DNA of 64,000 nucleotides, taken from an uncultured Candidatus Saccharibacteria bacterium (lineage in GTDB: Bacteria; Patescibacteriota; Minisyncoccia; Phycocordibacterales; UBA2100). Made by a program: the position numbers and the translations under genes. The notes below the pieces were generated by a model. That model made no database searches. It saw only the letters and a program-made list of their open reading frames with translations, and was not told where the DNA came from. The stretch is from contig CAZZHR010000002.1 of the NCBI GenBank assembly GCA_964654205.1, forward strand, positions 65,800 through 129,799, written 5' to 3'. Shown in pieces: positions 7,117-41,259 of this stretch; position 1 is the first letter of the stretch, and each line of letters opens with the position of its first letter.

Positions 7117-7632
7117 CTATGACAGTACGTTCCGCGAACGTCGAAAAAGAACGTACGCACCGAAAAGGAGTAGGGGTGTGAGGATCACACCGCCCACCAA
7201 ATACGGCGCAGGAAAAACACGTTCACCTTCGACGACAGTGATGGAGAACTCGTTCGCGGCAAGCTCCTCGCCGTCTGCCGTTCTGTAACTCACACTCAGC
7301 GCAAACGTACCCTGCTCTGGGAACGTGTAAAGGAGCGTGGTCGGGCCGAAAGTTTGGAAACGGACTCCGGTCGCAAGAAGTGTTTTTCGCTCTCTCATTA
7401 CCCTCACCCACACATGGTCGAAATGCTCGAACGCGAGGTCTTCTTCTGCTCGCAGTTCAAACTCAAACCGTGACGCGCGCCCGGCTTCGAACGTAGGCTC
7501 ATCGTAGCCAATATCAATGAAAAAAGGTGACGATGTGGCTTCGAGGGAGTATCCGAGCGAATGCGCATTGACTATCGAGTAGGGAGCTACCGCGAGGAAA
7601 AGCAGGAGGATGCAGAACAGCACACGCCGCAT
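7117..7632 (-). CDS. Hypothetical secreted/membrane-anchored protein
   Basis: Signal-peptide-like 'MRRVLFCILLLFLAVAPYSIVNA' and a C-terminal TM helix. No family recognised. Confidence 0.4.
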   Translation of the reverse strand: MRRVLFCILLLFLAVAPYSIVNAHSLGYSLEATSSPFFIDIGYDEPTFEAGRASRFEFELRAEEDLAFEHFDHVWVRVMRERKTLLATGVRFQTFGPTTLLYTFPEQGTFALSVSYRTADGEELAANEFSITVVEGERVFPAPYLVGGVILTPLLLFGAYVLFRRSRNVLS

Positions 7633-7649
7633 GTCTGTCAGTCTATCAT

Positions 7650-7874
7650 TCAACGGTTCGCGTGCATCAGGCATTCCGCTCGGACGTACGGCGGAGTCGC
7701 GTCACAGAAATTCCTCAACCTCACAGTCTTTTGCGCATGCTGATGCAAGTCGACTTTTGCATGACCGAGTGCTGTGTCCATTATCCTGCGCGCCCACTCA
7801 AGCATGCGCGCAGCGAGTATCTCGCCGCTCTCGCGGATGAAGTGGGCAACAGCGCTGATAAAGGACTCGTTCAT
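7650..7874 (-). CDS. Possible small ORF (74 aa), unknown
   Basis: Only an ORF in an otherwise unassigned 200-bp gap. No motifs. Confidence 0.2.
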   Translation of the reverse strand: MNESFISAVAHFIRESGEILAARMLEWARRIMDTALGHAKVDLHQHAQKTVRLRNFCDATPPYVRAECLMHANR

Positions 7875-7875
7875 A

Positions 7876-9141
7876 TCAATTTTCAGGTGTGGTGGTCGCT
7901 TGCTGCACTTGTTCGCTCTCTGTAGCCACTGGCTCGGTAGTTGTCGCTGGGATTTCTATCTCCGTACTTCCTGCTTCGGTATTCGTGCTTCCCATTCCAC
8001 TCTCCGTACTCCCCCCTTCGTTCCCTCCGCTCTCATTCGACGCTTCTTCATTCATACCTCCTATTTCGTCTCCTTGTTCTTCTTGGACTTCTTCTTGGGC
8101 AGGCGTGCTCGTTGCCGAAATCGTGTCGCTCGACGCTTCTTCATTCGTACTTCCTCCTTCTCCTGCTGGACTTTCAACGTTCACATTTTCACTTTCAACC
8201 TGCGGCGGAGCCGCCGGCCTCACATTCCCCGCCTCGCTCACTTCGCCACCCGGATTCGCAGCATCACCCACGAGCACGATGCGGCGCACTGTTATCACTG
8301 CACCGCCTGGGTCTGTCGCGCTGTATTCAATCGAGTGCGCAGTCGTCGTCGAGGTATCGATGCCAGTCCATGTCGCTTTCTCGACGCCGTTGATGCGCAT
8401 ATACACGCCCGCGTTGGTCTGGTATGGATCGACGAGTACCGCGCCGAGGTCTGCGTAGCTCGCACCGAGCGGAATACGCGCCGGATTGTTGCCGAGGAGC
8501 TGCAGACCTATCTTGAGCCCGCTCGCGCTCGTACTTCCTGCTTCGTTACTCGTACTTCCGTTTCCGCTTCCATCTGCGGGACCAAAGACCGCGGCCGCTG
8601 CGGCCACCTGCGGCTGGACGACAGGGGTGTAGCCGGGGAGCGTCTCGGTGCTGTCATCGAGGAATTTGCCGATAAGGCCGCCGTACGACGTCGCTACGGT
8701 GAGCTGCGTCACTGCGCTCCGCGCGTTCTCTTGTGTCTTGCTCAGCCGCGAAGCCTCGCGTTCTATCACTTGCCTGAGCTGCTGCGTCACGTACAGGCCG
8801 AGGTCGCGATACTCGCCGAGGTCTGTCTTCGAGACCTGCATCGTTACTTTTTTGATTACGTCCTTCCAGACGTACTCGTCGACATCTATCGTGTGGAATT
8901 CGTACTCTACGAAATAGTCGTTCTCGTCTTCGGTGACCGCGGTGATGACAGCACGCGGGCTGTAGCTCGAGAGGTCCTTGCCGACGAGGTAGGTGTTGTC
9001 CACGGTGAGCACTTCATGCTGCTGCGAGTAGATGGCCTCCGGATTCGTCGCCGCAAAGACCCCCGTGCCGCCTAGAATCAGGATGCCGAGTGCCACCGGC
9101 ACGGCATTGTGATACTGAAAGAAGTGAAGAAGTGGGGTCAT
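7876..9141 (-). CDS. Hypothetical membrane-anchored secreted protein with acidic/low-complexity C-terminal tail
   Basis: N-terminal TM 'VPVALGILILGGTGVFAA', a possible Ig-like segment ('HSIEYSATDPGGAVITV'), and an E/S/T/G-rich tail. The antisense ORFs 7774..9075 and 7889..8458 are low-complexity artefacts. Confidence 0.45.
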   Translation of the reverse strand: MTPLLHFFQYHNAVPVALGILILGGTGVFAATNPEAIYSQQHEVLTVDNTYLVGKDLSSYSPRAVITAVTEDENDYFVEYEFHTIDVDEYVWKDVIKKVTMQVSKTDLGEYRDLGLYVTQQLRQVIEREASRLSKTQENARSAVTQLTVATSYGGLIGKFLDDSTETLPGYTPVVQPQVAAAAAVFGPADGSGNGSTSNEAGSTSASGLKIGLQLLGNNPARIPLGASYADLGAVLVDPYQTNAGVYMRINGVEKATWTGIDTSTTTAHSIEYSATDPGGAVITVRRIVLVGDAANPGGEVSEAGNVRPAAPPQVESENVNVESPAGEGGSTNEEASSDTISATSTPAQEEVQEEQGDEIGGMNEEASNESGGNEGGSTESGMGSTNTEAGSTEIEIPATTTEPVATESEQVQQATTTPEN

Positions 9142-9171
9142 AGGTGAGAGGTTAGAGTTGATAGTTTTTAG
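9141..9171. repeat. Direct repeat copy 1 (taggtgagaggttagagtt..tagtttttag)
   Basis: Matches 9532..9562 (taggtgcgaggttagagttttt-agtttttag). An inverted partial copy 'aaaacctctaacct' lies at 9600..9613. Confidence 0.7.
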
Positions 9172-9598
9172 TTGATAAGGGTGTACGCAACTTCCCGATA
9201 ATCGCCGTAAGCATTCGCTGTACTTCGTCGAGCAATTCGATGGATTTGGAGAAATCTATACTGGGAAAGAGCCGTTGCGCCGCGAGAAGCTGTGTTTCCA
9301 GCTCCGCGGCTGAACCAGCCGAGACGCATAAGAATTGCGCGTAATCCTTCCTTGTCCCCCTCTTTGTACCCTCGGCTATGTTTGAGGGGATTGATATTGC
9401 GGCGCGCCGCATCTGGCTCATCAGACCAAACTGCTCCGACTGTGGGAGTTTCGCGGTATCGCGGTACATCGTTTCGACAAGACTCATAGCCCTCTGCCAC
9501 ACGACCAAATCCTTGAAAGACCGCACAGGGGTAGGTGCGAGGTTAGAGTTTTTAGTTTTTAGGTTTGAGCTGTGTGTCGTTTTCATATTTCTTTTCAC
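9152..9598 (-). CDS. Four-helix-bundle protein (TIGR02436; 23S rRNA intervening-sequence protein family)
   Basis: Characteristic 'DLVVWQRA...QFGLMSQMRRAAISIPSNIAEGTKRGTRKDYAQFLCVSAGSAAELETQLLAA'. The true start may be a GTG near 9523, just inside the upstream direct repeat. Confidence 0.8.
   Translation of the reverse strand: MKRNMKTTHSSNLKTKNSNLAPTPVRSFKDLVVWQRAMSLVETMYRDTAKLPQSEQFGLMSQMRRAAISIPSNIAEGTKRGTRKDYAQFLCVSAGSAAELETQLLAAQRLFPSIDFSKSIELLDEVQRMLTAIIGKLRTPLSTKNYQL
9532..9562. repeat. Direct repeat copy 2 flanking the four-helix-bundle gene
   Basis: See copy 1. It also pairs with 9600..9613 to form a hairpin spanning the annotated start codon. Confidence 0.7.
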
Positions 9599-9611
9599 TA
9601 AAACCTCTAAC

Positions 9612-10112
9612 CTATAAACTCATCACTACCTTCCCAATAATGTCGACTTGTTGAACTGCTCCGAAGACGCGCCCATCGCTGCTCTTGCTGCGATTGTCAC
9701 CGAGCACAAGGTAATCTTCTGGCCCGAGTTGCATACGAAATGCTCCATTGTTCGTCCCGCCTATCATGCTTCCCGTCTCGTACCTCGTACTCTTTCCTTC
9801 GCTATCAGTGACCGTCACTCCATCTTCGCCAAGCTCTACAAGCTCACCGGGCAAGCCAATCACCCGTTTCACTTCAATCACCTCTTTCTGGTGCGGATTG
9901 CGATGCACGAGTATGTCGCCACGGCTAATGTGGAATCGGTGAGTCACCTTTTCGACGATAACAACGTCGTTCGCAGAAAACGTCGGCTCCATCGAGCCGC
10001 CAGAGACCACGTACGGACGGAAAATGAAAACCGAAGACAGCAGCGCGAGCGCAATGACAGTCGCAATCGTCTCTTTGTGCGTTCGTATCGTTGTGTGCAA
10101 TTGGTACGTCAT
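9612..10112 (-). CDS. lepB: Signal peptidase I
   Basis: 'VVSGGSMEPTF' (catalytic Ser), 'KRVIGLPGE', 'GDNRSKSSDGR' boxes. Confidence 0.85.
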   Translation of the reverse strand: MTYQLHTTIRTHKETIATVIALALLSSVFIFRPYVVSGGSMEPTFSANDVVIVEKVTHRFHISRGDILVHRNPHQKEVIEVKRVIGLPGELVELGEDGVTVTDSEGKSTRYETGSMIGGTNNGAFRMQLGPEDYLVLGDNRSKSSDGRVFGAVQQVDIIGKVVMSL

Positions 10113-10114
10113 AT

Positions 10115-13100
10115 CTAAATTTCCATCCCGAGCATGAGCGCGAGGGCTTGGACGAAGCTGTTTGATGTGGCGGCAGGGGCGGCAGAATATTTGAACGGCT
10201 GCTCCGCGAACGCGGCGTAGACCATTGTGTCGCCGCTCGTGTTGAGGAAGGTGGTTCTTAACTTGAAACCATTGGCTAGAGAATCAATGACGTCTGCGGG
10301 TGCCGACTCTTGAGACGAACCATCGGCGCCCAAAACGCCACTTATTGGATTGTAGGTGTTCCTTGTTGTATCCAACATCCACCAACTACCCGTCGTTCCA
10401 ACCGCGGGCTTAAGCATGACAAACCGCGGCTTGAAGCCGGTGTAGACGAACGGACCGTCGGTCGAGCCATTGCCGGTGTAGGAGCCAAATGCCGACATGC
10501 CGGTCGTGGAGGCAAAGAGGTACGCCGCGTACTCGCTCCCGCCACCTACGCCGCCCGGTGTGCTCGAGGAATCGGTGAGTGCGCCGTTCTCCGTAAATGC
10601 TCCGCCTCGCCCCCTGTTGATGTGCCAATTGTCGCTCGTTCCAGAGAAGTACACATCGGGGACGAGTGTGGAACCGACCCCGATGACGGGCACGGGTTCG
10701 CCATTCGCGTCGATGAAGAAGCGCCTATTGGCTTCGACCGAGAGGTCCAGGCTCGTCCCGAACTTTATCCAAAGGTCTTTGATGTCTCCCGTGAGCTTGA
10801 AGCCCGCGTCCGGTTCCGCCCCCACCGCGAAGTTGCCTCTCGTCCAGTCGATCGTGTCGTTGGTAAGCGTGGAGCCGCCCGAATTGAAGTCGCTCACATC
10901 GTTGCGGTAGACCCAGGCGGAGCCGGTGTTTAGGTCGACCGAGAAGAGGTAGTGCACCCAGCCACTCGAGGCGAGCGTCTGCGTCGAGGAGTTCAGGATC
11001 ATGTCGAAGTTGTTGGACGCGTCGAGCCCCACGACCTGGATCACCTGCGTACCCGCCGTGCGTACGATGTAGAAGCCCGTGCCGAGGTCTCCCGTCGCTG
11101 CGATCGTCTGGTTGGTGCTATCTGCGCCCGTAATGTTGACCCAAAAAGAGACAGTTAACCGTTTGCCGTCCACGACGTCTGTGAGGTTTGCACCGCGCGT
11201 GAGGTAATCGTTGGTACCGTCGAAATGCGCGGCGCCGCCTTTGTTCACATCGGCATTCGTCCCCACGGTGAAGGCGCTTGCGGTAGGCGCGGTGTCGTTC
11301 CAGTAGGTCGCGTCGTCGGCAGTCGCAGCTGTGCTGTTGAGCAATAGATAGTCAGTCGCCGGTGCAGATGTATTGGACGAGTGATAGACCGCCCAATCGC
11401 CGGAGCCCGAAGCTTGTGTGTACGAGCGGAGCATCGCGCTCCCCTGATCGGCGATCGCCACGCTTGTGGCAGAGAGCGCCGCAACCGCGGGGTTCGGAGT
11501 CGTGCCGTCGACGATACCGCTCCCGTCGGCCACCTCTCTCCAATCGGTACCGTCGAAGGCGTACACACGGAGCTCGTTGGTCGTTGAGTCCACGAATGCC
11601 ACTCTGTTGCGGCCCAGCGCCGCCATGCCCGTCGAGCCTCCACTCGATTCGATTGTGAGAGAATTGCCCACCTGAGACCAATTCGTGCCGTCGAAATCAT
11701 ACGCGCGCAGCTGCTTTGTCCCCGAGTAGTCGTAGAGGGCTACGCGCGAAGCCGAGAGCGCCGCGAGGGAAGGGAGTGTGATGCCGCTGATGTTGAGCTC
11801 GTTCCCAGTCAGAGTCCAGTTGGTGCCGTCGAAATCATACGCGCGCAAGTCGTCGTTGGTGCCGTCGATAAAGGCTATGCGGTCGGACAGGAGCCCCGCA
11901 AGCGCGGGAGATCCCACGCCCGAGATGTTGAGCTCGTTGCCGGTCAGCGACCATGTAGAGCCGTTGAAATCGTATGCGCGCAAGTCGTCATTCCCGCTGT
12001 CAATAAATGCGACACGGCTCGAAAGCATAGTTGCGAGCGAGGGCGACCCTATACCCGAGATGCTGAGTCCGCTTCCTGTGAGAGACCAATTCGACGAGCT
12101 CAGGTCGTATGCGCGCAAAGACGCATTCCCGAAATCAACATATGCCACCCTCGTCGCGGAGAGCGCGGCAAGCGCGGGAGTATTGATACCGCTTATCGTG
12201 AGGCTGTTGCTCGTCTGTGCCCAGTCTCCGCGCACCTCTTTCACGAGCATGAAGTCCGGCGCTTTACCGAGCGAATGGCTCACCGTCCTGCTCTTACCCG
12301 TCCCCTTGTACGAGACGATGTCGAACCCGGCCTCCGCCGTCTCTTTCCAGAGCCATGAGATGTAGTTCTTGCCGCTCGTGTTGACGTTGGCCGAGCTCGC
12401 GCCGGAGCCGAGGCTGAAGCCGTTGTCGTCGTACGACGTGAGCGATTCCGTGTCGTCGACATCTTCACCGGCGGTCAGATTGGAGCTGAGCCACGCCTGC
12501 ACCCCGCGCAGAGCATCGAAGAGCGCATGGTTGGTCGAAGCGTCGGTACGGTTCTTTATCCACACGAGGTCGGGGCTAAAGCCGGTAACCGTTGTGCTTG
12601 TACCCGTCTGGTAGACAGACTTTGCCGCACCCGTGCCTGCGTACGCGATCGCATCAAAATAATTCTTCGGCACCACCACATCCGGCTCGGGCAAGTTGGC
12701 GGTCGAGAGTGCTTTGAAGCCAGAGGGCGGTTCGTATCTGAAATATCCCCCCGCCGCCGAGTAGTGCGTCGTCGTAGTTGTCCCTGGCTGACCAAAGTTT
12801 ATTGAAGCGCTTGCACCCGTGTAGACGGCGAGTGATGGAAATACAGGGTCAGCTCCGCTGAGTGTGGCGGCAGCTCCTGTGCCTCCTACTGGGTCACCAC
12901 TGTTCTGCCATGTCCCGTTTTTTGAGAAGTAAATCTTCTTGTTATCCAAATCAAGCGCTACACCGACGACATCGTTCGTTGTAAACGTATTGCCGTACGC
13001 GGCATTGGTCCCTCCGTTGTACGTCGTACCATCATGCCCGTAGTAGCTGATGCCCCCATTAGCAGACGAGCCGCCGGGAAATGCGCCGAGTGTCATCGGA

Positions 13101-14242
13101 GTGAACGCTGTGGAAGTTGCAACCCCGACGAGATAAAAATTACTGCCACTACTCTGTGCACCAGCTGTCACTTCCCAATACCATTTACCACTCGTGACAC
13201 CAATAATTGAGAGTGCCGTAAGAAAATTCCCAGCACTATGAGTCATACTCAAGTTGCCTTGAGAAAGAGTCAGCGAAGAGTTTTTGTAAATCGAGTTAAG
13301 TGTCGCAAACGCGTTCGTCGGGGTGTCGATGACTTGGTCGGTTGCGTCGAGGTTGTTGGCGGTCCAGTTGTTGCCGTTGCCGGATGTGTCGGTGCCAAGC
13401 GCCGCACTGTTGCCAAAGGCGAGCTTGAAGCCATTTGTCCCATACGTGCCCGTGTACGACTTCGGCCGCCAGTATCCATTGGCGTCGTACTCGCCGAAAG
13501 AGGTGGGCGTGAGCGCCTGCCCGTCGACAAAATGTAGGTCGGAGAGGTAGACATCAATCGAGCAACATGCACCCCCTTGTTGCTGACCGATACGATTGTT
13601 CGCATTGGCGAGCGCGAATTGGTACTCAGCGTTTTGTGCGGGATAATTCGCAGCGTCAAACGCCGTAATCTGCATCCCATCGATGTACATCTTCACTCTA
13701 TTCGCTGCAGTCGCATCTGTCGTGTCCCACACAACTACGACATGCATCCATTTTGATGGATCGCGAAAAAGTGCCGAGCTGCGAAGTTCGGCGGAAGTAG
13801 CCCCGCCGAAGGCGAAACTCAGGTTGTCCGCTGCAGCGCCGCCCGCCCCGAATTCAAGCCACGAAGAATTGCTCGACGAACCATCGTAGCCGGCAACTAT
13901 CGTTTGTCTCGTCCCCAAATTCCCCCTTTTTATCCACGTAGATATCGTTCCCTTCTTACGGTCAGCGGGTGCACCGGAGAATGTCTTGCTTAGGTTTGCA
14001 CTGTCATCGTCGTTGAAGCGAGCGCTGTTCGCGATCGTGTACGCCGCCTCCGCCTGCGGGAGTGTGAGAAGCGCAAACTGCGCGCCAAACCACGCCAGCG
14101 CGACAATCGCCGCCACAACCACCCGCCACCTCCACAGCCCGTTCAAAGCGTTCAAGGAGGCGTGCAAGGGGCGCCCTTGCACATGTGCAAGGGCGCCCCT
14201 TGCGCCGGAGATTTTGAGAAACTTGGTGAAGAGATTACTCAT
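10115..14242 (-). CDS. Giant (about 1375 aa) secreted multi-domain protein: LamG-like – SPRY/B30.2 – six ~45-aa tandem repeats – LamG-like
   Basis: N-terminal hydrophobic signal/anchor. SPRY signature 'SGKWYWEVT...NDVVGVALDLDNKKIYFSKNG'. Two concanavalin-A-like (LamG) segments. Six tandem repeats 'LRAYDFDGTNW.LTGNELNISG'. The first ~15 codons overlap the REP-like palindrome, so the true start may be an alternative codon downstream. Confidence 0.75.
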   Translation of the reverse strand: MSNLFTKFLKISGARGALAHVQGRPLHASLNALNGLWRWRVVVAAIVALAWFGAQFALLTLPQAEAAYTIANSARFNDDDSANLSKTFSGAPADRKKGTISTWIKRGNLGTRQTIVAGYDGSSSNSSWLEFGAGGAAADNLSFAFGGATSAELRSSALFRDPSKWMHVVVVWDTTDATAANRVKMYIDGMQITAFDAANYPAQNAEYQFALANANNRIGQQQGGACCSIDVYLSDLHFVDGQALTPTSFGEYDANGYWRPKSYTGTYGTNGFKLAFGNSAALGTDTSGNGNNWTANNLDATDQVIDTPTNAFATLNSIYKNSSLTLSQGNLSMTHSAGNFLTALSIIGVTSGKWYWEVTAGAQSSGSNFYLVGVATSTAFTPMTLGAFPGGSSANGGISYYGHDGTTYNGGTNAAYGNTFTTNDVVGVALDLDNKKIYFSKNGTWQNSGDPVGGTGAAATLSGADPVFPSLAVYTGASASINFGQPGTTTTTHYSAAGGYFRYEPPSGFKALSTANLPEPDVVVPKNYFDAIAYAGTGAAKSVYQTGTSTTVTGFSPDLVWIKNRTDASTNHALFDALRGVQAWLSSNLTAGEDVDDTESLTSYDDNGFSLGSGASSANVNTSGKNYISWLWKETAEAGFDIVSYKGTGKSRTVSHSLGKAPDFMLVKEVRGDWAQTSNSLTISGINTPALAALSATRVAYVDFGNASLRAYDLSSSNWSLTGSGLSISGIGSPSLATMLSSRVAFIDSGNDDLRAYDFNGSTWSLTGNELNISGVGSPALAGLLSDRIAFIDGTNDDLRAYDFDGTNWTLTGNELNISGITLPSLAALSASRVALYDYSGTKQLRAYDFDGTNWSQVGNSLTIESSGGSTGMAALGRNRVAFVDSTTNELRVYAFDGTDWREVADGSGIVDGTTPNPAVAALSATSVAIADQGSAMLRSYTQASGSGDWAVYHSSNTSAPATDYLLLNSTAATADDATYWNDTAPTASAFTVGTNADVNKGGAAHFDGTNDYLTRGANLTDVVDGKRLTVSFWVNITGADSTNQTIAATGDLGTGFYIVRTAGTQVIQVVGLDASNNFDMILNSSTQTLASSGWVHYLFSVDLNTGSAWVYRNDVSDFNSGGSTLTNDTIDWTRGNFAVGAEPDAGFKLTGDIKDLWIKFGTSLDLSVEANRRFFIDANGEPVPVIGVGSTLVPDVYFSGTSDNWHINRGRGGAFTENGALTDSSSTPGGVGGGSEYAAYLFASTTGMSAFGSYTGNGSTDGPFVYTGFKPRFVMLKPAVGTTGSWWMLDTTRNTYNPISGVLGADGSSQESAPADVIDSLANGFKLRTTFLNTSGDTMVYAAFAEQPFKYSAAPAATSNSFVQALALMLGMEI
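11540..12250. repeat. Intragenic tandem DNA repeats, period ~135-138 bp (5-6 units)
   Basis: Recurring strings 'gtgccgtcgaaatcatacgcgcgca(g/a)' at about 11685, 11823, 11960 and 12095, encoding the 45-aa protein repeats. Confidence 0.65.
14164..14203. repeat. 40-bp perfect REP-like palindrome gcaaggggcgcccttgcaca|tgtgcaagggcgccccttgc
   Basis: Arms verified base by base. It sits 3' of the transposase gene and overlaps the annotated 5' end of the giant LamG/SPRY ORF. Confidence 0.8.
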
Positions 14243-14901
14243 ACTTCGTCGAGCATTAATTCTCGGACTGTCGATTTCCGTGCGACGATGTCGTCGAAAG
14301 CGTCTTCAACGAAACGCTGGTACTCGCGCGCACTCTTGAAGTGCTCAAGGATTGTTGCCGTATCACACAATCCCCCGGTATCTGGCGAGAGGTACTCGGC
14401 ATAGCTACTATGCGGCCACTTTCGAGCGTCTCGCACAAGCTTCGCCACTTGGGGATTCACATGAATATAGGCCGAGAGGTGTTTGAGTTGCGTATCGTCT
14501 ACCACATGCACGGCCTTGATGCGATCCTGAAATACATGTCCCACATGATCGTACTTGCGATTGAAGTACATCGAGTAGCTCGTCAGTAGTTTCAGAAAAA
14601 GTTTACTAATCGATACATCTTTGTTCTGTCGTATGAGAAAATGGAAATGATTAGGCATAAGACAGTACACAGCAATCGAGAATGCATCTCTTTCGAATGG
14701 CTCGATGCGAATCTGGACGCGCTTCCCGCCGGTGTGCAAGGGCGCCCCTTGCACATCGCGACCGAGAGAGCGCATAAGTCGGTCTAGGAAAACTCGTGCA
14801 TCCTCATCATCTCGAAGGATGTCCATCTTGCCATTGCCGCGGCTGAAGAGGTGGTACCACTCTCCTGTCGAGAACTCTTTGTAGTCGCGTGAATTTGTCA
14901 T
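14239..14901 (-). CDS. tnpA: IS200/IS605-family Y1 HUH transposase (RAYT-like, Y1_Tnp)
   Basis: 'YHLFSRGNGK', HUH motif 'MPNHFHFLI', and C-terminal 'FQDRIKAVHVVDDTQLKHLSAYIHVNP...WPHSSY', the Y1 transposase signature. It carries a ~21-aa in-frame insertion encoded by the REP half-site. Confidence 0.65.
   Translation of the reverse strand: MTNSRDYKEFSTGEWYHLFSRGNGKMDILRDDEDARVFLDRLMRSLGRDVQGAPLHTGGKRVQIRIEPFERDAFSIAVYCLMPNHFHFLIRQNKDVSISKLFLKLLTSYSMYFNRKYDHVGHVFQDRIKAVHVVDDTQLKHLSAYIHVNPQVAKLVRDARKWPHSSYAEYLSPDTGGLCDTATILEHFKSAREYQRFVEDAFDDIVARKSTVRELMLDEV
14731..14756. repeat. Half-copy of the REP-like element (ggtgtgcaagggcgccccttgcacat) inside the transposase CDS
   Basis: Identical to one arm plus the centre of the 14164..14203 palindrome. 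It encodes 'RDVQGAPLHTGG' in frame. Confidence 0.75.
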
Positions 14902-14911
14902 ACTCGATTAG

Positions 14912-17900
14912 TCATCTAAAGCCCGTGGCAGCCGCGCCGAATACGACGAGCGAGCTGGTCGCATTGGTCGCGACAAATGAGACGAGGTCACATTGGTTGG
15001 CCGTCGTGGTGAGTGTCGGTGCGCTTCCACCCTGCCAGCGCACGACCGCTGGCCAGGTCAGTGTGCGGCTTCCCGTGCCGTCTTGGCACACCACGAGACG
15101 GAGGATTTGCCCCGCGATGAAATTGGAGAATGTAATCGTGCGGTTGCCGCCGAGTGTCACCTTCTGCTGGTTGCCTTCAAGCCAGTTGATAGCCACGGTC
15201 GCGCCGTCGGAGAGACTCCTTTCCACCGTGGTGATAGCGCCACCCGCACCCACCGCAAATTTCGCAAACGGCGTCGATGTACCCACACCCACGTTGCCGT
15301 TGGCGTTGATGACAAAGAGGGACTGCGCTGTGGTGGAAGCGACCTGTATGAAGTTGGTCGAGCTATCCTGCGTCTCTATCGTGAGCTTGGCCGCAGGGGT
15401 CGTGGTGCCGATTCCTGCCGCTGTCTCTACATAGAGCTTGCCCGCTCCAGTCGGCGACGTGGGGCAGCCGGATGCGCAGACAAGGAGGTTGTCGTCGGAG
15501 AGCAGAATGTTTTTGTTGGACGTGTGTATCGTAAGGTCGCCAGTCGAGTCCACTTGGAGCGAGGCGACCGTGGAATCATTGTACGAAATCGCTACCTGAG
15601 GATTCGCCGCTGCAGCCGTCACCGAGAACTTGCGGTACGGCGATGTGGTGCCGACACCGAAGAATCCGGCACTCGTGGCGCGCATCACCTCGGTGAGCGC
15701 GCCACTTTGCAGTGTCGAGAACACGAGGTCGCCCTTCCCGAGCCCGCCGAAGTTCTGTTGCAAGATGCTCGTGATTGCAGAAGTCGTCGTACCCGTGCCG
15801 GTGACATCGAGCGCGCGGAATGAGAGCCGCGATGCGGTCGATGTCGCGCTCGCCGCATTGGTGAGGTAGAGCTGGTCGGCGGTCGCGCCGGAAGATGTGT
15901 TGTAGACATCGAGCTTCGTGCCCGGCGTCGTCGTACCGATGCCGACATTGCCCGTGCTGGTGATGCGCATTCGCTCTTGGCTCGACTCATATCCACCAGT
16001 CCTAAACTGAATACTGTCGGAGCCGCCTGATGCAACATTCCCGTTGGTAAAGAGCACCAGACTAGTATTCGAACCGAAACTCGTGTTTCCGCCGAGACCG
16101 TATCCGACACCAGACCCGTACGCACGGAAGTAGCCTGTCGCAGTATCGCTATGTACAGTGTATGTGCTCTGACCATTGCTATTTGCATTCGTCACCGTGA
16201 CCCCGTCGACGCTCGCTACATTGCTGTACACAGTGAGTTTTGTAGACGGAGTCGTCGTCCCTACCCCCACGTTGCCGGTGTTTGTCACCGCAAAGAGCGA
16301 GCTCGTCGCGCTCGCGGTCGAGCTCGCTATCTCGAAGAGCATCGTATTGGTCTCGCCCGACAGTGCGTGCACTGAGAGCTTAGCCCACGGCGACGACGTG
16401 CCGATACCGAAGCGCGCATTGACCGTATCCCACGTGAGCGTACTCGACGCCGCCATCACGCCGCCGTAGTTGAATTGTATGTTGCCGTTGCCGCCTGCCG
16501 GAGCCGAGCCGCCGGATGCGAGGAGGGAGCCGGAGAAGTATGTGTAGACTGCCGAACCATCGACAGCTGTACCCGTTGAAAGCACCGCTGCTTCGAGATA
16601 GTCGGATGTTCCATTCATGTCGACAATGGTGGTTACTTGCGCCGCATCTGCACCACCCGATCGATAGGGACCGTTTGCTATCGCGACACCGTTCTTACGG
16701 ACAGCTGCCTGACAGTTGTTTGTGGTATTTGTACATCCAACAGACGCGACAACGATATACTTGCCGGCTACCGTAGGTGTGAAGCGGTTGGTCGTTAGGT
16801 CAAAATTGTTGTTGGTATCGTAAGTTTCAGTCGTCCAATCGACCACAAGTACCGTATCGCTCACAGTGGTTGTCGCCGACCCATTGCGATGCACATGGAA
16901 CGCTACCGTAGAAGAAGCGGTTCCAACCGTGCGGTTCGTGTAGACCTTGACCGCGAATCCGCCTGCGCCGCCTGCGCCGCCTGCGCCTCCAGTGCCCGCA
17001 TTTCCAGCGCTACCCCCGGAGCCAACGGTGAAATAGAAAGTCCCCGTCGGACTGCCTACAAGCTCGTACGCGTATCCTCCGCCTCCACCTCCGCCTCCAC
17101 TCCATACGTTGTTGAGATCATTGATTCCGCCGCCAGCCCCTCCTCCTCCGAACGCGTTGCCTGCGCCGCCTGCTGCCGTAGTACCCGCTCCGCCACCCCC
17201 ACCGCGGGCACCATTGCCCCCCGCTCCTCCCACTGCGTACAGATCTTGCGTCTCCCCACCATCCGCATCAATACCAAGCGTGAGTCCGCCTGCACCACCA
17301 ACGAGATTTACTTCGCCACCGGAGCCAGAACCGCCAGATGCCGCAGGCCCATTGGAGCCAGACCCACCGCCTCCGCCCGTCGCACTTAAGTGCGGAGAGG
17401 AGCATGCGACAGAATTGCTTCCGAAGCATGTCGTACCTCCTACGCCACCATTGCCGCCGTTGCCTCCACCGCCACCCCCTCCACCGCCGCCCCAAACCTC
17501 CACTTCTATATATGACGTATCGCTCGGGAGCGTGAGCGTGCCACCGGAGAAGCTCGGTGCGCTGCCGGGGTCTCCGGTGAAGACCACCGACGAGGTTCCC
17601 ACAGTGGAAGTCGCGTATGTTCCTATGAGCGTGTTGCCACCACCTCCGCCTCCACTCGAGCCGCTCCCCGTCCCCGCACACTGTCCGCTCGGGAGCAGGA
17701 AGCAGCCGCTCGTGAGTTGGACGCCACCCGCAAAGGTGGATGTTGCCGAGCCGGTGATATTGAGGAGTGTTGATTGAATGCCGCCAGAGAATGTTGTGGT
17801 GGAAGGCGACCCAAACGTCGCTGCGCCGGTGGATGCCGAGAACGAGAGCGCGGCTACCGTAGAAGTCGACGAGTGCGTCGAGGTGGCGAGGTAGAAGGTG

Positions 17901-20900
17901 CTGCCGATGTTGCGGAGTGTCCAGAGATTGCTGCCGAGCCCGTCCGAGAGCGCGAGCTGCGGACCTGTCGAGCTCGCGACCGTAAGAATATGGTACGGTG
18001 TCGTCGTACCGATGCCGAACGTACCGTTGAAATAGCCGAGACCGTTGTCGAGAATGCGGAAGCGCGTCGTCGAGGCGGAGTCGAAGAATTCCGTGAGTAT
18101 GCCCGTGCCCGTCCCAGATCCCTGCACTGAGAGCTTAGCCCACGGTGACGTGGTGCCGATTCCGACGTTGCCCGTCGAACCCTGAATGAGCATTCTCGTC
18201 GCGTAACTCCCGGCCGTTGCGTTGGCCTTGAAATGGAGGTCGCCATTGTTGCCCGTCTGCCCTATCTCCGCCCAGCCCGTGCCAGTACCCGCGCCGCCGG
18301 TCGTGAATATCATGCTGCCGACGTTGCCTGTACCGGCTCTGTTGAGGAAGAGTCGGAAGTCGCCCGACGTGTCAAAGGCCGCACTCGTACCGAAGACGTC
18401 GAGCTTACTCCCCGGCGTCGTCGTACCGATTCCCACGCTGCCGGTGCTCTTTACCGCCAAAAGGTCACCGCCGGATCCGCTCGATGAGTTGAGCTGCAAG
18501 AGGTCCGCGCTGGAACCGGTATGAAGACTTCCAACGATGACGGGCTTCGCGATGTCGTGCTCGTTGTAGATGTTGAAGATACCTGTAAAGGTCGGGGAGG
18601 TTTTGCCAAAACCGATCTCCCCCGTGGGACTGACGATGAAGGCGTTGACGCCGTCGGTCCTGTTCTGGAAGAAGAGCGCCCCAGCAGGAGTATTGCCGCT
18701 ATCCCCCGCGAGGAAGCCCCATTTCTTACCGCCGGAGTCCGTATTCTGGAGATTGAACCACGGATCGCTGCCGCTCACATGGAACTTCGCGTCGCTTGAA
18801 GCTGCGCCCACGCCGAGCAGACCCTGCACGAGTAGGTTACCTGTCGTCGTCGCGCCGCCTGAGATCGTGAGGCCGCCCGCCTGTGTGCCGTCGCCGATGG
18901 TGGAACTTGCTGTGACACCGAGGCCGCCAGTTACAGCGAGTGTGGTCCACGGACTTACGTTGCCGATACCGACACTTCCACCACCGCTTTGAAGGACGAG
19001 ATTATTCCATGCACCGGCACCGCTGCTCTGTGCGCTGAGTCCAAAATAAGTATTGCCCGTGCTCGCGCCCGACGCTACAAAGAGCACCGAACCGGCTGAA
19101 CCAGAGACCCAATCGCTCGTCGTTATCGCAAGTTGTGAAGGCGCATTACCGCCAGTAATTTGCAACTTACCGTTGGTCGGACTCGCCGTGCCGATACCGA
19201 AGTTGCCGCTGATGCGGTCGACGAAGACGAGCGGCGAGGAGGTACCGACGGTAAAGAGCGAGGTCGATGGCGGCGTCGATGTGCCGACGGCGAGACCGCC
19301 GGAGGCGATTGTGCTCGTCGCCGTCGTCGAAGTGGCGACGAAATATGAAGCGTCGACGAATGACGTAAAGCGAGCATTGCCACTAACGTGAAGCTTATAG
19401 GTGGGAGAGGTATTACCTATACCTACAGAGCCAGCTGTATTGAGGAACAATAAGTCTGTCGCCGCGGCGCCCGTGCTGATGGAAAATCCAGAGCTATCGT
19501 TACCACTGATTCCGACTTTCCATTCTGGAGTCGTACCGCTTCTGACAAAGCTGACATTCGGTGCCACATTTCCGTTTATCAAAATTCCTTGATACGTCGT
19601 TCCTGCAGTCACATGGAGTGGCTGCTGCGGATTTGTTGTTCCAATTCCAACCCGACCGCTTGGGTTCCAAATGCCGGAGCCCGGGAAGAATGCGGTGCCA
19701 GAGACAGAGAGCGCGGTTGAGGACGCATACGGGAACGTGGACGCTGCTGTGGTAGAAGTCGCAGTGAAGATTGGCGCGGTGATGGTGTTGTATGCGGTGA
19801 GTGCGCCGCGCAGGAGTGAGCTGCCCGCGACTGAGAGGTTTCCGCTTGAGTCGATGGTCGTCGTCGCGCTGCCGCCGAAGTACGCAGTGCCAAAGTTGGA
19901 GAAGTTAGTACTCGACGCATTCCCCGAGAATATCTGGAGCGCCGTCCAGTTGTTGGAGACACTTGTGTCCACGGAGCCCCCACCGCCCGTGATACAAGCA
20001 CCGTCTACGGCAAAGCATCCGTCGGCGAGGTTTATTCCATTGGCAAATGTGGTAGTAGCCGAGCCGGTAAAGGTAATATCGCTCAGCGTAGTCCCAGAAA
20101 GGGTACCGCCCGTAATCGTCGAGTCGGAGATATCGACGCTGCTGAGCTGATCGATTTTGTTTGTGTGCGCGACCGTCTGATACACATTGGTAATACTTGC
20201 CGACTGCGCTGTAGAGACACCGGCGACGAGGCTTGTGAGTCGCTGTTCCACGGCTGCGATCCGCGTATCGAGGTCGGCATCCGTGATGCCGCCGACAGAT
20301 GCAACTATGCGCTCGGTCTCGACGATACGTTCAACGACTCGTTCGTTTGTCACCACAGTCGATGTGCTCACAACAACAGGCGTTTGCTGCGATTGCGCTA
20401 CGATAACCTGTGCGCGTTCATACGGATCCATCGTGTCGATGAATCCCGCATCGAGCGGTGTAAGTGCGAGCGAGTTCGTCGCGTCACTCGGGAACACGAT
20501 GTTGTAGACGAACGTGTCGACGCTCGTGTTGACTGCCTTCGCGATGGTGCGCAGCGCATCAGGGAAGAAAGAAAGTGTCGCGCTCGATACTTGTGCGAGC
20601 GCGACCTCGGGATTCTCAACCGCATAGTACGTCGCATCACTCGCCGCGCGCACCGCGCGCGTCGCCACTTCATCAACTCGTACGAGCGACTGCGCGACGC
20701 TCGCCGCCATCTCGCGCGTAGTCTCCGCTGCAAACCGCGCATAGGCTGGGTCGACAAACGCATACGTGCCAAATGTCATGGTGAACGCAACGAGCATCGC
20801 GACAAACTTCTGCAGAAACTCCGTCGCGGGAGAAATCGTGTACACCGGCACGTGCACATGTGCGTGACTCAAAGTACGAGCAACCGCCTCGTGCACGCCC

Positions 20901-21349
20901 GACGGCGCCGCTGCGATAGACGGCATCGCGTGAGCGACCTTCGCGCTCTGCGCCACCGCCGCAGCCTTCAATTTTTCCTGCACATGCTTCGCGTGCGCCG
21001 CCAACGTCTTCGTCACAGGTATTTGTCCGCTCACAGAAAGGGCGCTCTCGACACTCTTTACACTTTCAGATTTCAACTTTATATCTTGTGGCTTATTCTC
21101 CACCCCGTGATATTCACGCACCCGTTCATCCGACAGCTGCTCCCTGCGGATGGTTTTCGCATGCTCTTGCTCCACGAGGTATTTTTGGAGCGAGCCCTCA
21201 TCGACGTACCAGTTCTTGCCGATTCTTCTACCGCGAAGCCTTCCATCACGGCAAAGACGAGCGATGTAGTCGCGAGAGAGCCCTGCACTGGATGAAGCAT
21301 CCCCGGCCGAGAGGTGCTTCTGCCCGTCGAAATATATTTCGTTGCTCAT
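14912..21349 (-). CDS. Giant (about 2146 aa) membrane-anchored surface fibre protein: N-terminal HTH_17-like domain – TM helix – Gly/Ser/Thr-rich tail-fibre-like repeats
   Basis: Start trimmed to 'MSNEIYFDGQKHLSAGDASSSAGLSRDYIARLCRDGRLRGRRIGKNWYVDEGSL' (excisionase/HTH_17-like). TM helix 'FVAMLVAFTMTFGTYAFV'. At least 14 repeats of 'VGIGTT.P..KL.V'. Poly-Gly block 'YIEVEVWGGGGGGGGGG'. Antisense Arg-rich ORFs are artefacts. Confidence 0.75.
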   Translation of the reverse strand: MSNEIYFDGQKHLSAGDASSSAGLSRDYIARLCRDGRLRGRRIGKNWYVDEGSLQKYLVEQEHAKTIRREQLSDERVREYHGVENKPQDIKLKSESVKSVESALSVSGQIPVTKTLAAHAKHVQEKLKAAAVAQSAKVAHAMPSIAAAPSGVHEAVARTLSHAHVHVPVYTISPATEFLQKFVAMLVAFTMTFGTYAFVDPAYARFAAETTREMAASVAQSLVRVDEVATRAVRAASDATYYAVENPEVALAQVSSATLSFFPDALRTIAKAVNTSVDTFVYNIVFPSDATNSLALTPLDAGFIDTMDPYERAQVIVAQSQQTPVVVSTSTVVTNERVVERIVETERIVASVGGITDADLDTRIAAVEQRLTSLVAGVSTAQSASITNVYQTVAHTNKIDQLSSVDISDSTITGGTLSGTTLSDITFTGSATTTFANGINLADGCFAVDGACITGGGGSVDTSVSNNWTALQIFSGNASSTNFSNFGTAYFGGSATTTIDSSGNLSVAGSSLLRGALTAYNTITAPIFTATSTTAASTFPYASSTALSVSGTAFFPGSGIWNPSGRVGIGTTNPQQPLHVTAGTTYQGILINGNVAPNVSFVRSGTTPEWKVGISGNDSSGFSISTGAAATDLLFLNTAGSVGIGNTSPTYKLHVSGNARFTSFVDASYFVATSTTATSTIASGGLAVGTSTPPSTSLFTVGTSSPLVFVDRISGNFGIGTASPTNGKLQITGGNAPSQLAITTSDWVSGSAGSVLFVASGASTGNTYFGLSAQSSGAGAWNNLVLQSGGGSVGIGNVSPWTTLAVTGGLGVTASSTIGDGTQAGGLTISGGATTTGNLLVQGLLGVGAASSDAKFHVSGSDPWFNLQNTDSGGKKWGFLAGDSGNTPAGALFFQNRTDGVNAFIVSPTGEIGFGKTSPTFTGIFNIYNEHDIAKPVIVGSLHTGSSADLLQLNSSSGSGGDLLAVKSTGSVGIGTTTPGSKLDVFGTSAAFDTSGDFRLFLNRAGTGNVGSMIFTTGGAGTGTGWAEIGQTGNNGDLHFKANATAGSYATRMLIQGSTGNVGIGTTSPWAKLSVQGSGTGTGILTEFFDSASTTRFRILDNGLGYFNGTFGIGTTTPYHILTVASSTGPQLALSDGLGSNLWTLRNIGSTFYLATSTHSSTSTVAALSFSASTGAATFGSPSTTTFSGGIQSTLLNITGSATSTFAGGVQLTSGCFLLPSGQCAGTGSGSSGGGGGGNTLIGTYATSTVGTSSVVFTGDPGSAPSFSGGTLTLPSDTSYIEVEVWGGGGGGGGGGNGGNGGVGGTTCFGSNSVACSSPHLSATGGGGGSGSNGPAASGGSGSGGEVNLVGGAGGLTLGIDADGGETQDLYAVGGAGGNGARGGGGGAGTTAAGGAGNAFGGGGAGGGINDLNNVWSGGGGGGGGYAYELVGSPTGTFYFTVGSGGSAGNAGTGGAGGAGGAGGFAVKVYTNRTVGTASSTVAFHVHRNGSATTTVSDTVLVVDWTTETYDTNNNFDLTTNRFTPTVAGKYIVVASVGCTNTTNNCQAAVRKNGVAIANGPYRSGGADAAQVTTIVDMNGTSDYLEAAVLSTGTAVDGSAVYTYFSGSLLASGGSAPAGGNGNIQFNYGGVMAASSTLTWDTVNARFGIGTSSPWAKLSVHALSGETNTMLFEIASSTASATSSLFAVTNTGNVGVGTTTPSTKLTVYSNVASVDGVTVTNANSNGQSTYTVHSDTATGYFRAYGSGVGYGLGGNTSFGSNTSLVLFTNGNVASGGSDSIQFRTGGYESSQERMRITSTGNVGIGTTTPGTKLDVYNTSSGATADQLYLTNAASATSTASRLSFRALDVTGTGTTTSAITSILQQNFGGLGKGDLVFSTLQSGALTEVMRATSAGFFGVGTTSPYRKFSVTAAAANPQVAISYNDSTVASLQVDSTGDLTIHTSNKNILLSDDNLLVCASGCPTSPTGAGKLYVETAAGIGTTTPAAKLTIETQDSSTNFIQVASTTAQSLFVINANGNVGVGTSTPFAKFAVGAGGAITTVERSLSDGATVAINWLEGNQQKVTLGGNRTITFSNFIAGQILRLVVCQDGTGSRTLTWPAVVRWQGGSAPTLTTTANQCDLVSFVATNATSSLVVFGAAATGFR

Positions 21350-21649
21350 GAGCGATGATGCCTGTGGCCGGACGCACGATTTATCTAATATTCTACTACT
21401 CTTTTCGCCAATTGGACGTGTATCGGACACTATTACGTGTGGACAAGCCTAAGCAGAATTTGTACCGGACATTTTTTACATTTTTTCCCACAAGTTCGTA
21501 TCAACGCACAAAAAATTCTCCGTTTTTTTGAAAAAAAGCCTCTTCACTACAACCTCTCACCTCTTACCTACCCCCCTCCTCCCGGCCGACTCGGGCATCC
21601 GAGGAGCGACGTAGAGCGGTATTCCGCGCGTGTGTGGCGCAGAAAATGA

Positions 21650-30867: not shown

Positions 30868-31686
30868 TCACGAACGCTTCTTGCGCGTCGGCCGGCCATG
30901 GTCGTCTTCGATGCGGACAATGTCCTCCTCATCGAAATCGCCGTATGCGACCTCCACGACGATGCCGCCTTTCTTCGACTCGAGCCTGTGTACCTGTTTC
31001 TTGCCCACACAGTACGTCTCGCCCCTTTTGAGCCTCACCTGCTCCGCTTTGCCCTTTGCATCGTGGAGGGTCGCTAAGGCATCGCCCTCTACAAGGAGCC
31101 AGCACTCGCTGCGACGATGATGGTATTGCAGACTCAACCGACTCTTGGGCTTTATGTAAATGGTCTTGAGATTCCAGTCCTTGCCACTGTCCCAGCCGTA
31201 GTATTCGCCCCACGGCCGTACTGTTTTCTTCACCGGTTTTGCCGCTTTCGCGATCATCCAGGACGAAGACTGTACTTTCCCTCCGTGACCAACTCGGTAC
31301 TTCCGCGCGATGCCGAGCTCGATGCACACAGAGTCCTCTGGCGTATTCGACTGTACCCTGTCGCCGCCATTGGCGAAGACGTGCGGGCGCAGCTTCCGGA
31401 GCGTGCGCGAGACACTCATATCGGGGTCGTTCTCCGCGTGGTCGGTGAGCACCACCTTGTCGACGAACGGGAGCGACCGTATCATCTCTGCGCGCTCTTT
31501 CTCCGGCATAAAAGCGAAACCTTTCTTAGACTTGAGCCAATTGTCATTGTTGATGATGACAACAAGCTTGTCGCCGAGCTTCTTTGCCTCCTTAAACATA
31601 CGCACATGTCCGATATGGAGTGGGTCGAACCCCCCCGACACAGCGACCCATCGAACCTTTTTGCTACCGTATCGTGCCTTGGCCAT
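30868..31686 (-). CDS. Cytidylyltransferase-like (HxGH) nucleotidyltransferase fused to a C-terminal cupin domain
   Basis: 'VAVSGGFDPLHIGHVRMFKEAKKLGD' (HIGH motif). C-terminal 'WGEYYG...LQYHHRRSECWLLVEGDA' is a cupin_2-like domain, as in the type II mannose-6-phosphate isomerase C-terminus. Confidence 0.65.
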   Translation of the reverse strand: MAKARYGSKKVRWVAVSGGFDPLHIGHVRMFKEAKKLGDKLVVIINNDNWLKSKKGFAFMPEKERAEMIRSLPFVDKVVLTDHAENDPDMSVSRTLRKLRPHVFANGGDRVQSNTPEDSVCIELGIARKYRVGHGGKVQSSSWMIAKAAKPVKKTVRPWGEYYGWDSGKDWNLKTIYIKPKSRLSLQYHHRRSECWLLVEGDALATLHDAKGKAEQVRLKRGETYCVGKKQVHRLESKKGGIVVEVAYGDFDEEDIVRIEDDHGRPTRKKRS

Positions 31687-40821: not shown

Positions 40822-41259
40822 ATGACAAAGAAACACCCTATCACCGTGGTTGTATCCGGAGGTTTCGACCCTGTACATATCGGCCACGTCCGAATGTTTC
40901 GCGAAGCCAAAAAGCTCGGAGACACGCTTATTGTGGTCTTGAATAATGACAATTGGGTGAAGGACAAAAAGGGGTACGTATTCATGCCCGCCAAGGAGCG
41001 GAAAGAAGTTATTGAAAGCATTAAATATGTTGATAAGGTCGCACTCTCATCTCACATACCAGGCGACGCGGACAAGACCATCGCGCGTGAACTGAGGCGT
41101 ATTAGACCCGATATTTTTGCCAATGGTGGTGGTGCGAAGCATATGCCTGGTAATGAACTCGACACCTGTCGTGAACTCGGCATTCAACTCGCTTACGACG
41201 TGGGGGGCAGAAAGAAAGTTCAGTCGAGCTCGCGGCTCGTACAAAATTCAAGGCACTGA
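40822..41259 (+). CDS. Cytidylyltransferase-like (HxGH) nucleotidyltransferase, paralogue of 30868..31686 N-terminal domain
   Basis: 'VVVSGGFDPVHIGHVRMFREAKKLGD', about 60% identical to the other copy over 120 aa. Confidence 0.65.
   Translation: MTKKHPITVVVSGGFDPVHIGHVRMFREAKKLGDTLIVVLNNDNWVKDKKGYVFMPAKERKEVIESIKYVDKVALSSHIPGDADKTIARELRRIRPDIFANGGGAKHMPGNELDTCRELGIQLAYDVGGRKKVQSSSRLVQNSRH

Follow-up and report, generated by a model that had tools for sequence, protein, structure and literature searches.

How does a bacterium come to vary a large, repeat-containing lectin-like protein, and does that protein belong to the cell or to a phage? We address this question for one gene in a 64,000-nucleotide stretch of contig CAZZHR010000002.1 (hereafter the window). 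The gene lies on the minus strand at positions 10115-14242 and forms one open reading frame (ORF) of 1375 amino acids (aa), as the original prediction had it. That prediction, made from the window alone, described a secreted lectin whose near-identical DNA repeats had expanded recently and could still change in number. We put the probability at about 0.6 that the product is a Sec-exported, multidomain surface adhesin that resembles phage receptor-binding proteins and diversifies by the insertion of domain cassettes, not by repeat slippage. In its architecture, the protein is a new variant of a large, uncharacterized family with a LamG-SPRY-DUF7483 core.

We scanned the ORF against Pfam both whole and in segments. 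The strongest match is to DUF7483 (PF24299, 278 bits in total), and it falls into three separated pieces that together span the 330-position profile. Piece 1 (positions 12224-12676, minus strand, as are all features of the gene; aa 523-673) covers profile positions 2-170 with 133.5 bits, or positions 2-155 of a custom hidden Markov model (HMM) of the domain. Piece 2 (11240-11395, aa 950-1001) covers approximately positions 157-211 with 28.6 bits. Piece 3 (10187-10534, aa 1237-1352) covers positions 212-330 with 141.5 bits, ends in the motif PFKY, and also matches phrog_24898, 'tail fiber protein', at 1e-30. Among relatives, DUF7483 is normally unbroken and 311-357 aa long, and piece 2 is 80-90% identical to homologs in which pieces 1 and 2 are contiguous. 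We set the insertion junctions by alignment to homologs with an unbroken DUF7483. The domain is interrupted by the six repeats at custom-HMM positions of about 136-155 (junctions ...VKEVRGD / WAVYHSS...) and by a second LamG module at about position 195 (junctions ...GTNADVNK / EYAAYLF...). The linear order LamG-SPRY-repeat-LamG that had been proposed therefore does not hold, because DUF7483, a domain that had been missed, encloses both the repeats and the second LamG.

Both proposed LamG domains were recovered with Laminin_G_3 (PF13385, cut-off 27.6 bits). The first, a concanavalin-A-like domain at positions 13583-13972 (aa 91-220), scores 46.9 bits (E = 4e-12) and is covered by phrog_27411. 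The second belongs to a module with a C-terminal extension (10535-11239, aa 1002-1236), in which PF13385 matches at about aa 1028-1180 with 36.2 bits (E = 8e-9). Note that both matches appear in the segment scans only; the whole-protein Pfam scan listed neither. The Pfam check that had been suggested for SPRY gave a clear result at positions 12788-13186 (aa 353-485), where PF00622 matches at E = 1e-17. This match is full length (profile positions 1-120 of 121) and scores 59.5-64.7 bits against a gathering threshold of 26.3. The sequence strings cited originally for SPRY were also recovered. The closest relatives by sequence in the Protein Data Bank (PDB) are the SPRY domains of RanBP9/10 (5e-7) and of ryanodine receptors. 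The label 'B30.2' finds no support, as only SPRY matched: the PRY model gave no match, and with the cut-off relaxed to E ≤ 10, the segments aa 1-330 and 331-520 yielded Laminin_G_3 and SPRY and nothing else.

The repeats occupy positions 11396-12223 (aa 674-949). As predicted, there are six tandem, in-frame units of approximately 45 aa, each beginning at a conserved tryptophan (aa 674-718, 719-763, 764-808, 809-854, 855-900, and 901-949; lengths 45, 45, 45, 46, 46, and 49 aa). Their DNA period is 135-147 bp, a wider range than the 135-138 bp that had been claimed. The units are far from 'near-identical' or 'highly similar' at the DNA level. Pairwise identity ranges from 46 to 69% for DNA and from 22 to 68% for protein, the best 59-nt stretch among the units reaches only 69-76%, and Tandem Repeats Finder (positions 9500-15000, score ≥30) reported no array with a period of ~135 bp. 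The pair of 25-mers cited in favor of recent expansion is real (11685-11709 and 11823-11847, in units 3 and 4) and is identical, not different at one position as had been stated. It encodes the conserved LRAYDFDGT strand, and all other exact matches between any two units are ≤14 nt. At positions where two units share an amino acid, the codon is also the same in 135 of 295 cases, against 108 expected from the codon usage of the gene; the unit 3-4 pair alone is clearly raised (19 of 27 versus 10.6 expected). DNA identity is low, synonymous sites are near saturation, and codon concordance is near random; the duplications are therefore old, and the codon counts leave room for no more than a single pair of units (3-4) that is younger or was converted.

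Structural modeling offers a reason for the constancy of the array. An AlphaFold2 (AF2) model of aa 666-958, built on a 24-sequence alignment, has a mean predicted local distance difference test (pLDDT) score of 91.7, a predicted template modeling (pTM) score of 0.90, and 24 β-strands. Foldseek matches this model to Pizza6, NHL, Kelch, the PknD sensor domain, and the fucose lectins RSL and AAL, with E values down to 6e-11 and template modeling (TM) scores up to 0.74, the latter for Pizza6. On this model, the six repeats are predicted to be the blades of one closed six-bladed β-propeller. No Pfam or NCBIfam model reached threshold on the repeat, and sister proteins gave only sub-threshold Pfam matches to Tectonin, Rax2, and IFT80-propeller. 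An exhaustive HMMER search with the repeat region alone recovered 1647 representative proteins at E ≤ 1e-3. We counted units with a single-unit HMM in the 149 best propeller proteins, which contain 178 arrays. Six units were found in 133 arrays, five in 13, seven in nine, and twelve in four; the five- and seven-unit arrays are most simply detection noise. Blade number thus appears to be set by the structure, and this speaks against variation in copy number as a mechanism of diversification.

What does vary is the set of domains that DUF7483 carries. Judged from alignments to the custom HMM, DUF7483 is a recurrent host of nested domains at about four sites. The LamG site (~190-197) is also used in P0025, P0070, P0090, and P0046, and the LamG insert studied here is 39% identical to that of P0025. 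Sites at ~22-25 carry insertions in 12 proteins, those at ~55-79 do so in P0055 and P0046, and the propeller site (~136-155) is used only by the 1375-aa protein. The propeller was found in none of the 119 closest family members; conversely, DUF7483, SPRY, and the N-terminal LamG region are each missing from all 149 best propeller proteins. DUF7483 and the propeller occur together at 0 of 80 metagenome loci and 0 of six genome loci. A scan of genome contigs returned a single relative of the family, in Kaiserbacteria CP066682.1, and propeller-only loci in Rhodospirillales, Saprospiraceae, and Alcanivoracaceae. Within everything searched, the combination of DUF7483 with this type of propeller is unique to this protein. 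Neither insert has an anomaly in GC content or in GC content at third codon positions (GC3) that would be a compositional trace of recent acquisition.

Several other arrangements of these modules were observed. P0046 has an LVIVD propeller at a different DUF7483 site, in addition to its LamG (locus L093), and several homologs have duplicated SPRY-DUF7483 units (among P0002, P0009-P0018, P0055, P0070, and P0090). In two unrelated proteins, P0188 and P0268, a LamG with the type of C-terminal extension seen in the nested LamG (...SVE.NRR.F....G.P.......P.....SG....W..N.G.GG.F.ENG.L) directly precedes a six-bladed propeller of the same type. Because the two modules adjoin there, they seem also to travel together elsewhere. 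The two halves of DUF7483 are alike (aa 553-640 versus aa 1260-1345; also aa 704-790 of Roseobacter phage CRP-811 gp32, with the pattern GF.P..V.IK...W...D..R....NGFKLR), and this likeness suggests that the domain was born by internal duplication. In an AF2 model of aa 521-1375, the DUF7483 pieces are all-β with pLDDT of 64-96. The overall pLDDT is 60, and the model is poor as a whole because its alignment consisted of natural DUF7483 rows only and so had no rows for the inserts. Foldseek with this model gave no match at E ≤ 0.001.

The core of the protein is widespread and is shared with phages. A whole-protein search returned more than 5000 homologs, most with the LamG-SPRY-DUF7483 core, and several of these are named Candidatus Kaiserbacteria. 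SPRY had been described as eukaryote-like, with horizontal acquisition to be tested. Given that it forms part of a conserved core that recurs in over 5000 proteins of prokaryotes and phages, this description is not supported; SPRY has long been an integral component of a family that prokaryotes and phages share, and we see no sign in the sequences that this gene in particular acquired it recently. The PHROG matches include phrog_19943, 'virion structural protein' (5e-161), and phrog_24898 (4.5e-53). The core is encoded in 71 phage genomes, chiefly those of pelagiphages, cyanopodoviruses, and roseophages; the phages that share the family are marine podo- and siphoviruses. For example, gp32 of CRP-811, also named 'virion structural protein', is 37% identical over 671 aa. 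The phage copies lie at the distal end of the tail module. In CRP-811, the gene follows the tape measure, a tail protein, and a fiber protein and precedes the lysin; in cyanophage SS120-1, it comes shortly after an internal virion protein. In Pelagibacter phage HTVC011P, it comes shortly after an internal virion protein and a tail-fiber gene, and two genes share its content, gp36 with LamG-SPRY and gp37, named 'tail fiber protein'.

Among members with a recognizable C-terminal PFKY motif, we find two classes. The cellular class has 27 members (and seven more with a weaker hydrophobic score). These combine an N-terminal hydrophobic signal and the motif AxA-AYTI(A/S)NSARF with a C-terminal tail of 17-24 aa, which consists of an Ala/Ser-rich linker and ends in ...FLMGMxF or ...FxEF (P0003-P0018, P0025, P0031, and others). 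The phage-type class, with 49 members, has neither signal nor tail; these proteins start at the mature N terminus and end in 'xxAR'. The co-occurrence of signal and tail has one exception. By its sequence, the 1375-aa protein belongs to the cellular class. Its first 66 residues (positions 14045-14242) are predicted to be a Sec signal peptide or N-terminal anchor, with a long basic n-region, a hydrophobic stretch at aa 41-61 (Kyte-Doolittle maximum 2.33 at aa 41-59), and AEA at aa 64-66 followed by AYT. This AxA motif is conserved in the cellular subfamily and immediately precedes the conserved mature N terminus AYTIANSARF. Residue 10 of CRP-811 gp32 aligns with residue 68, just past the predicted AEA|A site. 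At the other end, the last 23 residues (10118-10186, aa 1353-1375), SAAPAATSNSFVQALALMLGMEI, form an Ala/Ser linker followed by a short hydrophobic motif, and their length is insufficient for a transmembrane helix. NCBIfam has no sorting-signal model that matches this tail and none for the whole protein. This previously undescribed tail is a candidate for a new motif that serves in sorting or docking.

The gene is also part of a conserved cassette. In this window, the cassette spans positions 7117-21430, and it recurs at six other loci (L002, L003, and L092-L095), including Kaiserbacteria CP066682.1, where the GAPDH is 77% identical. It comprises a giant protein gene, the family gene, a signal peptidase I gene, a gene for a protein of ~320-435 aa with Ig-like matches at most loci, and often GAPDH and RpiB. 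Signal peptidase I (S26; 9612-10112, minus strand; TIGR02227, 120 bits; PF10502, 9e-33) starts 2 nt past the stop of the gene studied here and lies no more than one to two genes from the family gene at seven of seven loci. This linkage suggests that it may be a dedicated peptidase for the family protein. At the orthologous position, the family gene encodes 1283, 1366, 1375, 1795, 1952, 2032, or 2133 aa, and these lengths differ by insertions and duplications of whole domains. The giant proteins range from 1157 to more than 2500 aa across loci.

On the minus strand, the local order is giant protein, Y1_Tnp, the gene studied here, S26, 23S_rRNA_IVP, a 421-aa protein, a 185-aa protein, and GAPDH, with GatB and SecA further upstream. 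The giant protein (14912-21430, minus strand, 2172 aa) lies upstream of the gene and has weak matches, at 1e-13, to tail-fiber PHROGs; its C-terminal part is 50-52% identical to giants of orthologous loci. It has an N-terminal HTH_17-like segment, a long Gly-rich stretch, and weak matches to three tail-fiber PHROGs in all. A hydrophobic segment at about aa 205-226 could, by eye, be a membrane helix, and many diverged copies of a '...GIGTTxP...' repeat are present (DNA repeat families D1 and D2). The Y1_Tnp gene (14239-14901, minus strand; IS200/RAYT-like; PF01797, 4e-9, 37 bits, cut-off 23) overlaps the start of the gene studied here by 4 nt (ATGA). The signal peptidase I next door had been predicted correctly, whereas the 'REP/IS200 element' reduces to a Y1_Tnp domain, because the NCBIfam model REP_Tyr_transpos (RAYT) scores only 52.2 bits against a cut-off of 80. 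The 23S_rRNA_IVP protein (9152-9598, minus strand, 148 aa) is a four-helix-bundle protein that resembles Avd, with weak matches to bAvd and to the Avd of diversity-generating retroelements (DGRs). Small Y1_Tnp, 23S_rRNA_IVP, and NYN genes are shifted or absent among orthologous loci (L002, L003, and L092-L094), and their starts and stops often overlap or abut those of other genes. They look like mobile or hitchhiking genes inside a conserved operon. A scan with PADLOC for defense systems gave nothing relevant. Two further repeats were seen elsewhere in the window. One is inverted, with 155-nt arms (31493-31647 and 40846-41000) that are 72% complementary and lie 9.2 kb from each other; the other is direct, with 116-nt copies (49101-49216 and 50168-50283) that share 72% identity at a distance of 1067 nt.

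Two rival explanations concern how the protein might vary. A contingency lectin, in which near-identical 135-bp repeats expanded recently and shift in copy number through slipped-strand mispairing or recombination, would account for six in-frame tandem units with a regular period and for the identical 25-nt patch in units 3 and 4, where codon concordance is raised; that patch may stem from a duplication that came later or from gene conversion over a short tract. We consider this explanation very improbable, given the divergence of the units, the absence of an array in Tandem Repeats Finder, and the predominance of six-unit arrays across 149 diverse proteins. A closed six-blade propeller, as modeled, could not keep its fold if a blade were added or lost. 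The expansion and slippage claimed originally thus find no support in the units themselves, and of the 'variable host-interaction lectin' the host interaction remains plausible, while the variability takes the form of whole-domain insertion and duplication on an evolutionary scale. The Avd-like neighbor could instead mark the protein as the variable target of a DGR, and it does match the 23S_rRNA_IVP model and, weakly, bAvd and DGR Avd models. However, no template/variable-repeat pair occurs in the 64-kb window and no reverse transcriptase among the scanned neighbors, the Avd match (18.5 bits) is far under its cut-off of 80, and genes of this type are shuffled or absent at orthologous loci. 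On these grounds we reject a DGR target, which is the least probable of the explanations considered.

The other two rivals concern what the protein is. It would be natural to read strong PHROG matches, homologs in the tail modules of 71 phage records, a giant neighbor with tail-fiber matches, and a nearby 333-aa protein with an excisionase-like helix-turn-helix as signs that the gene encodes the tail fiber or receptor-binding protein of a prophage or phage remnant integrated in the chromosome, and not a cellular protein. Yet capsid, portal, terminase, and tail-tube families were not matched by any neighbor gene in 7117-27184, the stretch scanned for families; the flanks are GAPDH, GatB, and SecA; synteny of the cassette extends over at least seven loci, every one of which includes signal peptidase I; and the composition is uniform, with no GC or GC3 anomaly. 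Because of these housekeeping flanks, this synteny, the lack of hallmark neighbors, and the uniform composition, we read the gene as chromosomal and conserved. The signal peptide and tail that distinguish the cellular subfamily from the 49 phage-type members point the same way, and a prophage origin is unlikely. Scarcely less doubtful is an exported enzyme or substrate-capture protein of the concanavalin-A-like 'lectin/glucanase' superfamily, degrading glycans or scavenging nutrients instead of adhering to a partner cell. Glucanases also use LamG/concanavalin-A-like folds, a possible glycoside-hydrolase link of such annotations has been raised (bioRxiv 10.1101/2025.02.25.640227), and literature and PDB searches assign DUF7483 no function. 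Against an enzyme, no catalytic family was matched in Pfam, NCBIfam, or the PDB, the matches that were obtained are to the noncatalytic Laminin_G_3, SPRY, and propeller, and the nearest characterized context is the tail-fiber region of phages.

We therefore return to a surface adhesin as the preferred reading. The exported, lectin-like character and the plausible role in host interaction that had been predicted agree with the presence of LamG, SPRY, and an adjacent signal peptidase I. Our analysis shows the domain architecture, the nested insertions, the divergence of the repeats, the distribution of the family, and the synteny, together with a predicted propeller fold; we infer export, cleavage, surface retention, and adhesin function. 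The gene would be co-transcribed with the giant tail-fiber-like protein and the dedicated signal peptidase I. Sec would export the protein, and the linked peptidase would cut at AEA|AYT. The mature protein might then be retained at the surface, either by its conserved C-terminal tail or because it associates with the giant fiber-like protein. Its lectin-type modules (two LamG, SPRY, and the propeller) would bind glycans or proteins of a partner cell, as in phage receptor-binding proteins. On an evolutionary scale, the locus diversifies when whole domains are inserted or duplicated at a small number of permissive DUF7483 sites, and not through blade number.

Several points weigh against this reading or temper it. 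Cleavage of the signal peptide is predicted from motif and synteny, and because the hydrophobic core is long (~21 aa), an uncleaved membrane anchor is possible. The host is judged to be a Kaiserbacteria-like bacterium of the candidate phyla radiation (CPR) from best hits and synteny only, and both the ligand and the cellular location of the protein are putative. A literature search for DUF7483 returned no papers, and its profile has no significant relative among PDB sequences (best CanA, E = 0.43). For the way in which the three DUF7483 pieces pack, and for the geometry of the inserts, the AF2 model gives low-confidence predictions. Last, no close relative with the propeller insertion was found in genome and metagenome collections, so the unit counts span the module family, not strains.

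A wider reading, which we offer tentatively and consider possible without being probable, is that Kaiserbacteria-type CPR bacteria domesticated a phage receptor-binding protein as an attachment protein of the cell surface, or gave one to phages. In a dedicated export cassette, the LamG-SPRY-DUF7483 protein would then be accompanied by a giant tail-fiber-like protein, an Ig-like protein, and a signal peptidase I of its own. The cellular form would be marked by its C-terminal tail (...F-L-M-G-M-x-F or F-x-E-F), which would serve in sorting or docking. DUF7483 would act as a scaffold with approximately four permissive sites, at which propellers, LamG, and Gly-rich modules are swapped to change host specificity. 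The 1375-aa protein would be one specificity variant, with its propeller at a site that other members seen do not use.

Attachment to other cells is the presumed lifestyle of CPR bacteria, and few of the molecules that mediate it are known. Concanavalin-like lectins of CPR bacteria are thought to serve in attachment (bioRxiv 10.1101/2025.02.25.640227). A phage-fiber-like cassette that is linked to a signal peptidase, and whose binding modules vary between related genomes, is a concrete candidate for host recognition, and its propeller, LamG, and SPRY domains are candidate constructs for binding studies. DUF7483 also ties CPR surface proteins to the tail-fiber regions of abundant marine phages (pelagiphages, cyanopodoviruses, and roseophages). 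The locus should not be listed as a contingency locus, as the slippage framing fails; it is instead a clean case of double nested insertion into the uncharacterized DUF7483. Overall, we regard the locus as of moderate interest, for this double insertion, for the link between phages and CPR bacteria, for the conserved signal-peptidase cassette, and for the undescribed C-terminal tail.

The locus can be compared with several known systems. Bacillus subtilis SipW with TasA/TapA is a dedicated pair of signal peptidase and substrate genes. The present cassette is similar in the tight linkage, at all seven loci, between signal peptidase I and genes whose products are secreted surface or fiber proteins. 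The peptidase differs, being a bacterial P-type S26A enzyme by TIGR02227 and not of the SipW type (20.8 bits, cut-off 190), and its substrate relationship is putative. Phase-variable or contingency repeat proteins share with our protein the presence of tandem in-frame repeats in a surface protein. However, contingency repeats are near-identical DNA units, whereas the units here are diverged and their number appears to be fixed by the fold. Six-bladed propellers such as the designed Pizza6 (derived from the PknD sensor domain), NHL, Tectonin, RSL, and AAL resemble the predicted arrangement of six blades with four strands each (TM 0.63-0.74). Sequence identity to PDB propellers is 11-21%, and the propeller here differs in being nested inside another domain. 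Many propellers of this kind bind ligands on their top face.

Among the closest relatives are Kaiserbacteria orthologs, for example, QQG37862.1 (HYS26_04540, P0002, 1952 aa) and P0025 (1283 aa). They share the cassette, the N terminus, and the C-terminal tail, and P0025 has a LamG at the same insertion site. Unlike the 1375-aa protein, they lack the propeller, and identity over shared parts is 46-48%; P0002 instead has a duplicated DUF7483 unit and a ~283-aa insertion at site 22-25. The phage LamG-SPRY-DUF7483 proteins (CRP-811 gp32, SS120-1 YP_007676874, and HTVC011P gp36 and gp37; PHROG 19943/27411/24898) have the same core order with 35-39% core identity, and their alignment begins at the predicted mature N terminus of our protein. 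By analogy from their position in the tail module, they likely do the same job, receptor binding. They are approximately 780-800 aa long or divided between two genes, with no signal peptide, no tail, and an unbroken DUF7483. In contrast, the protein described here is chromosomal, is predicted to be exported, and carries two domains nested within its DUF7483.

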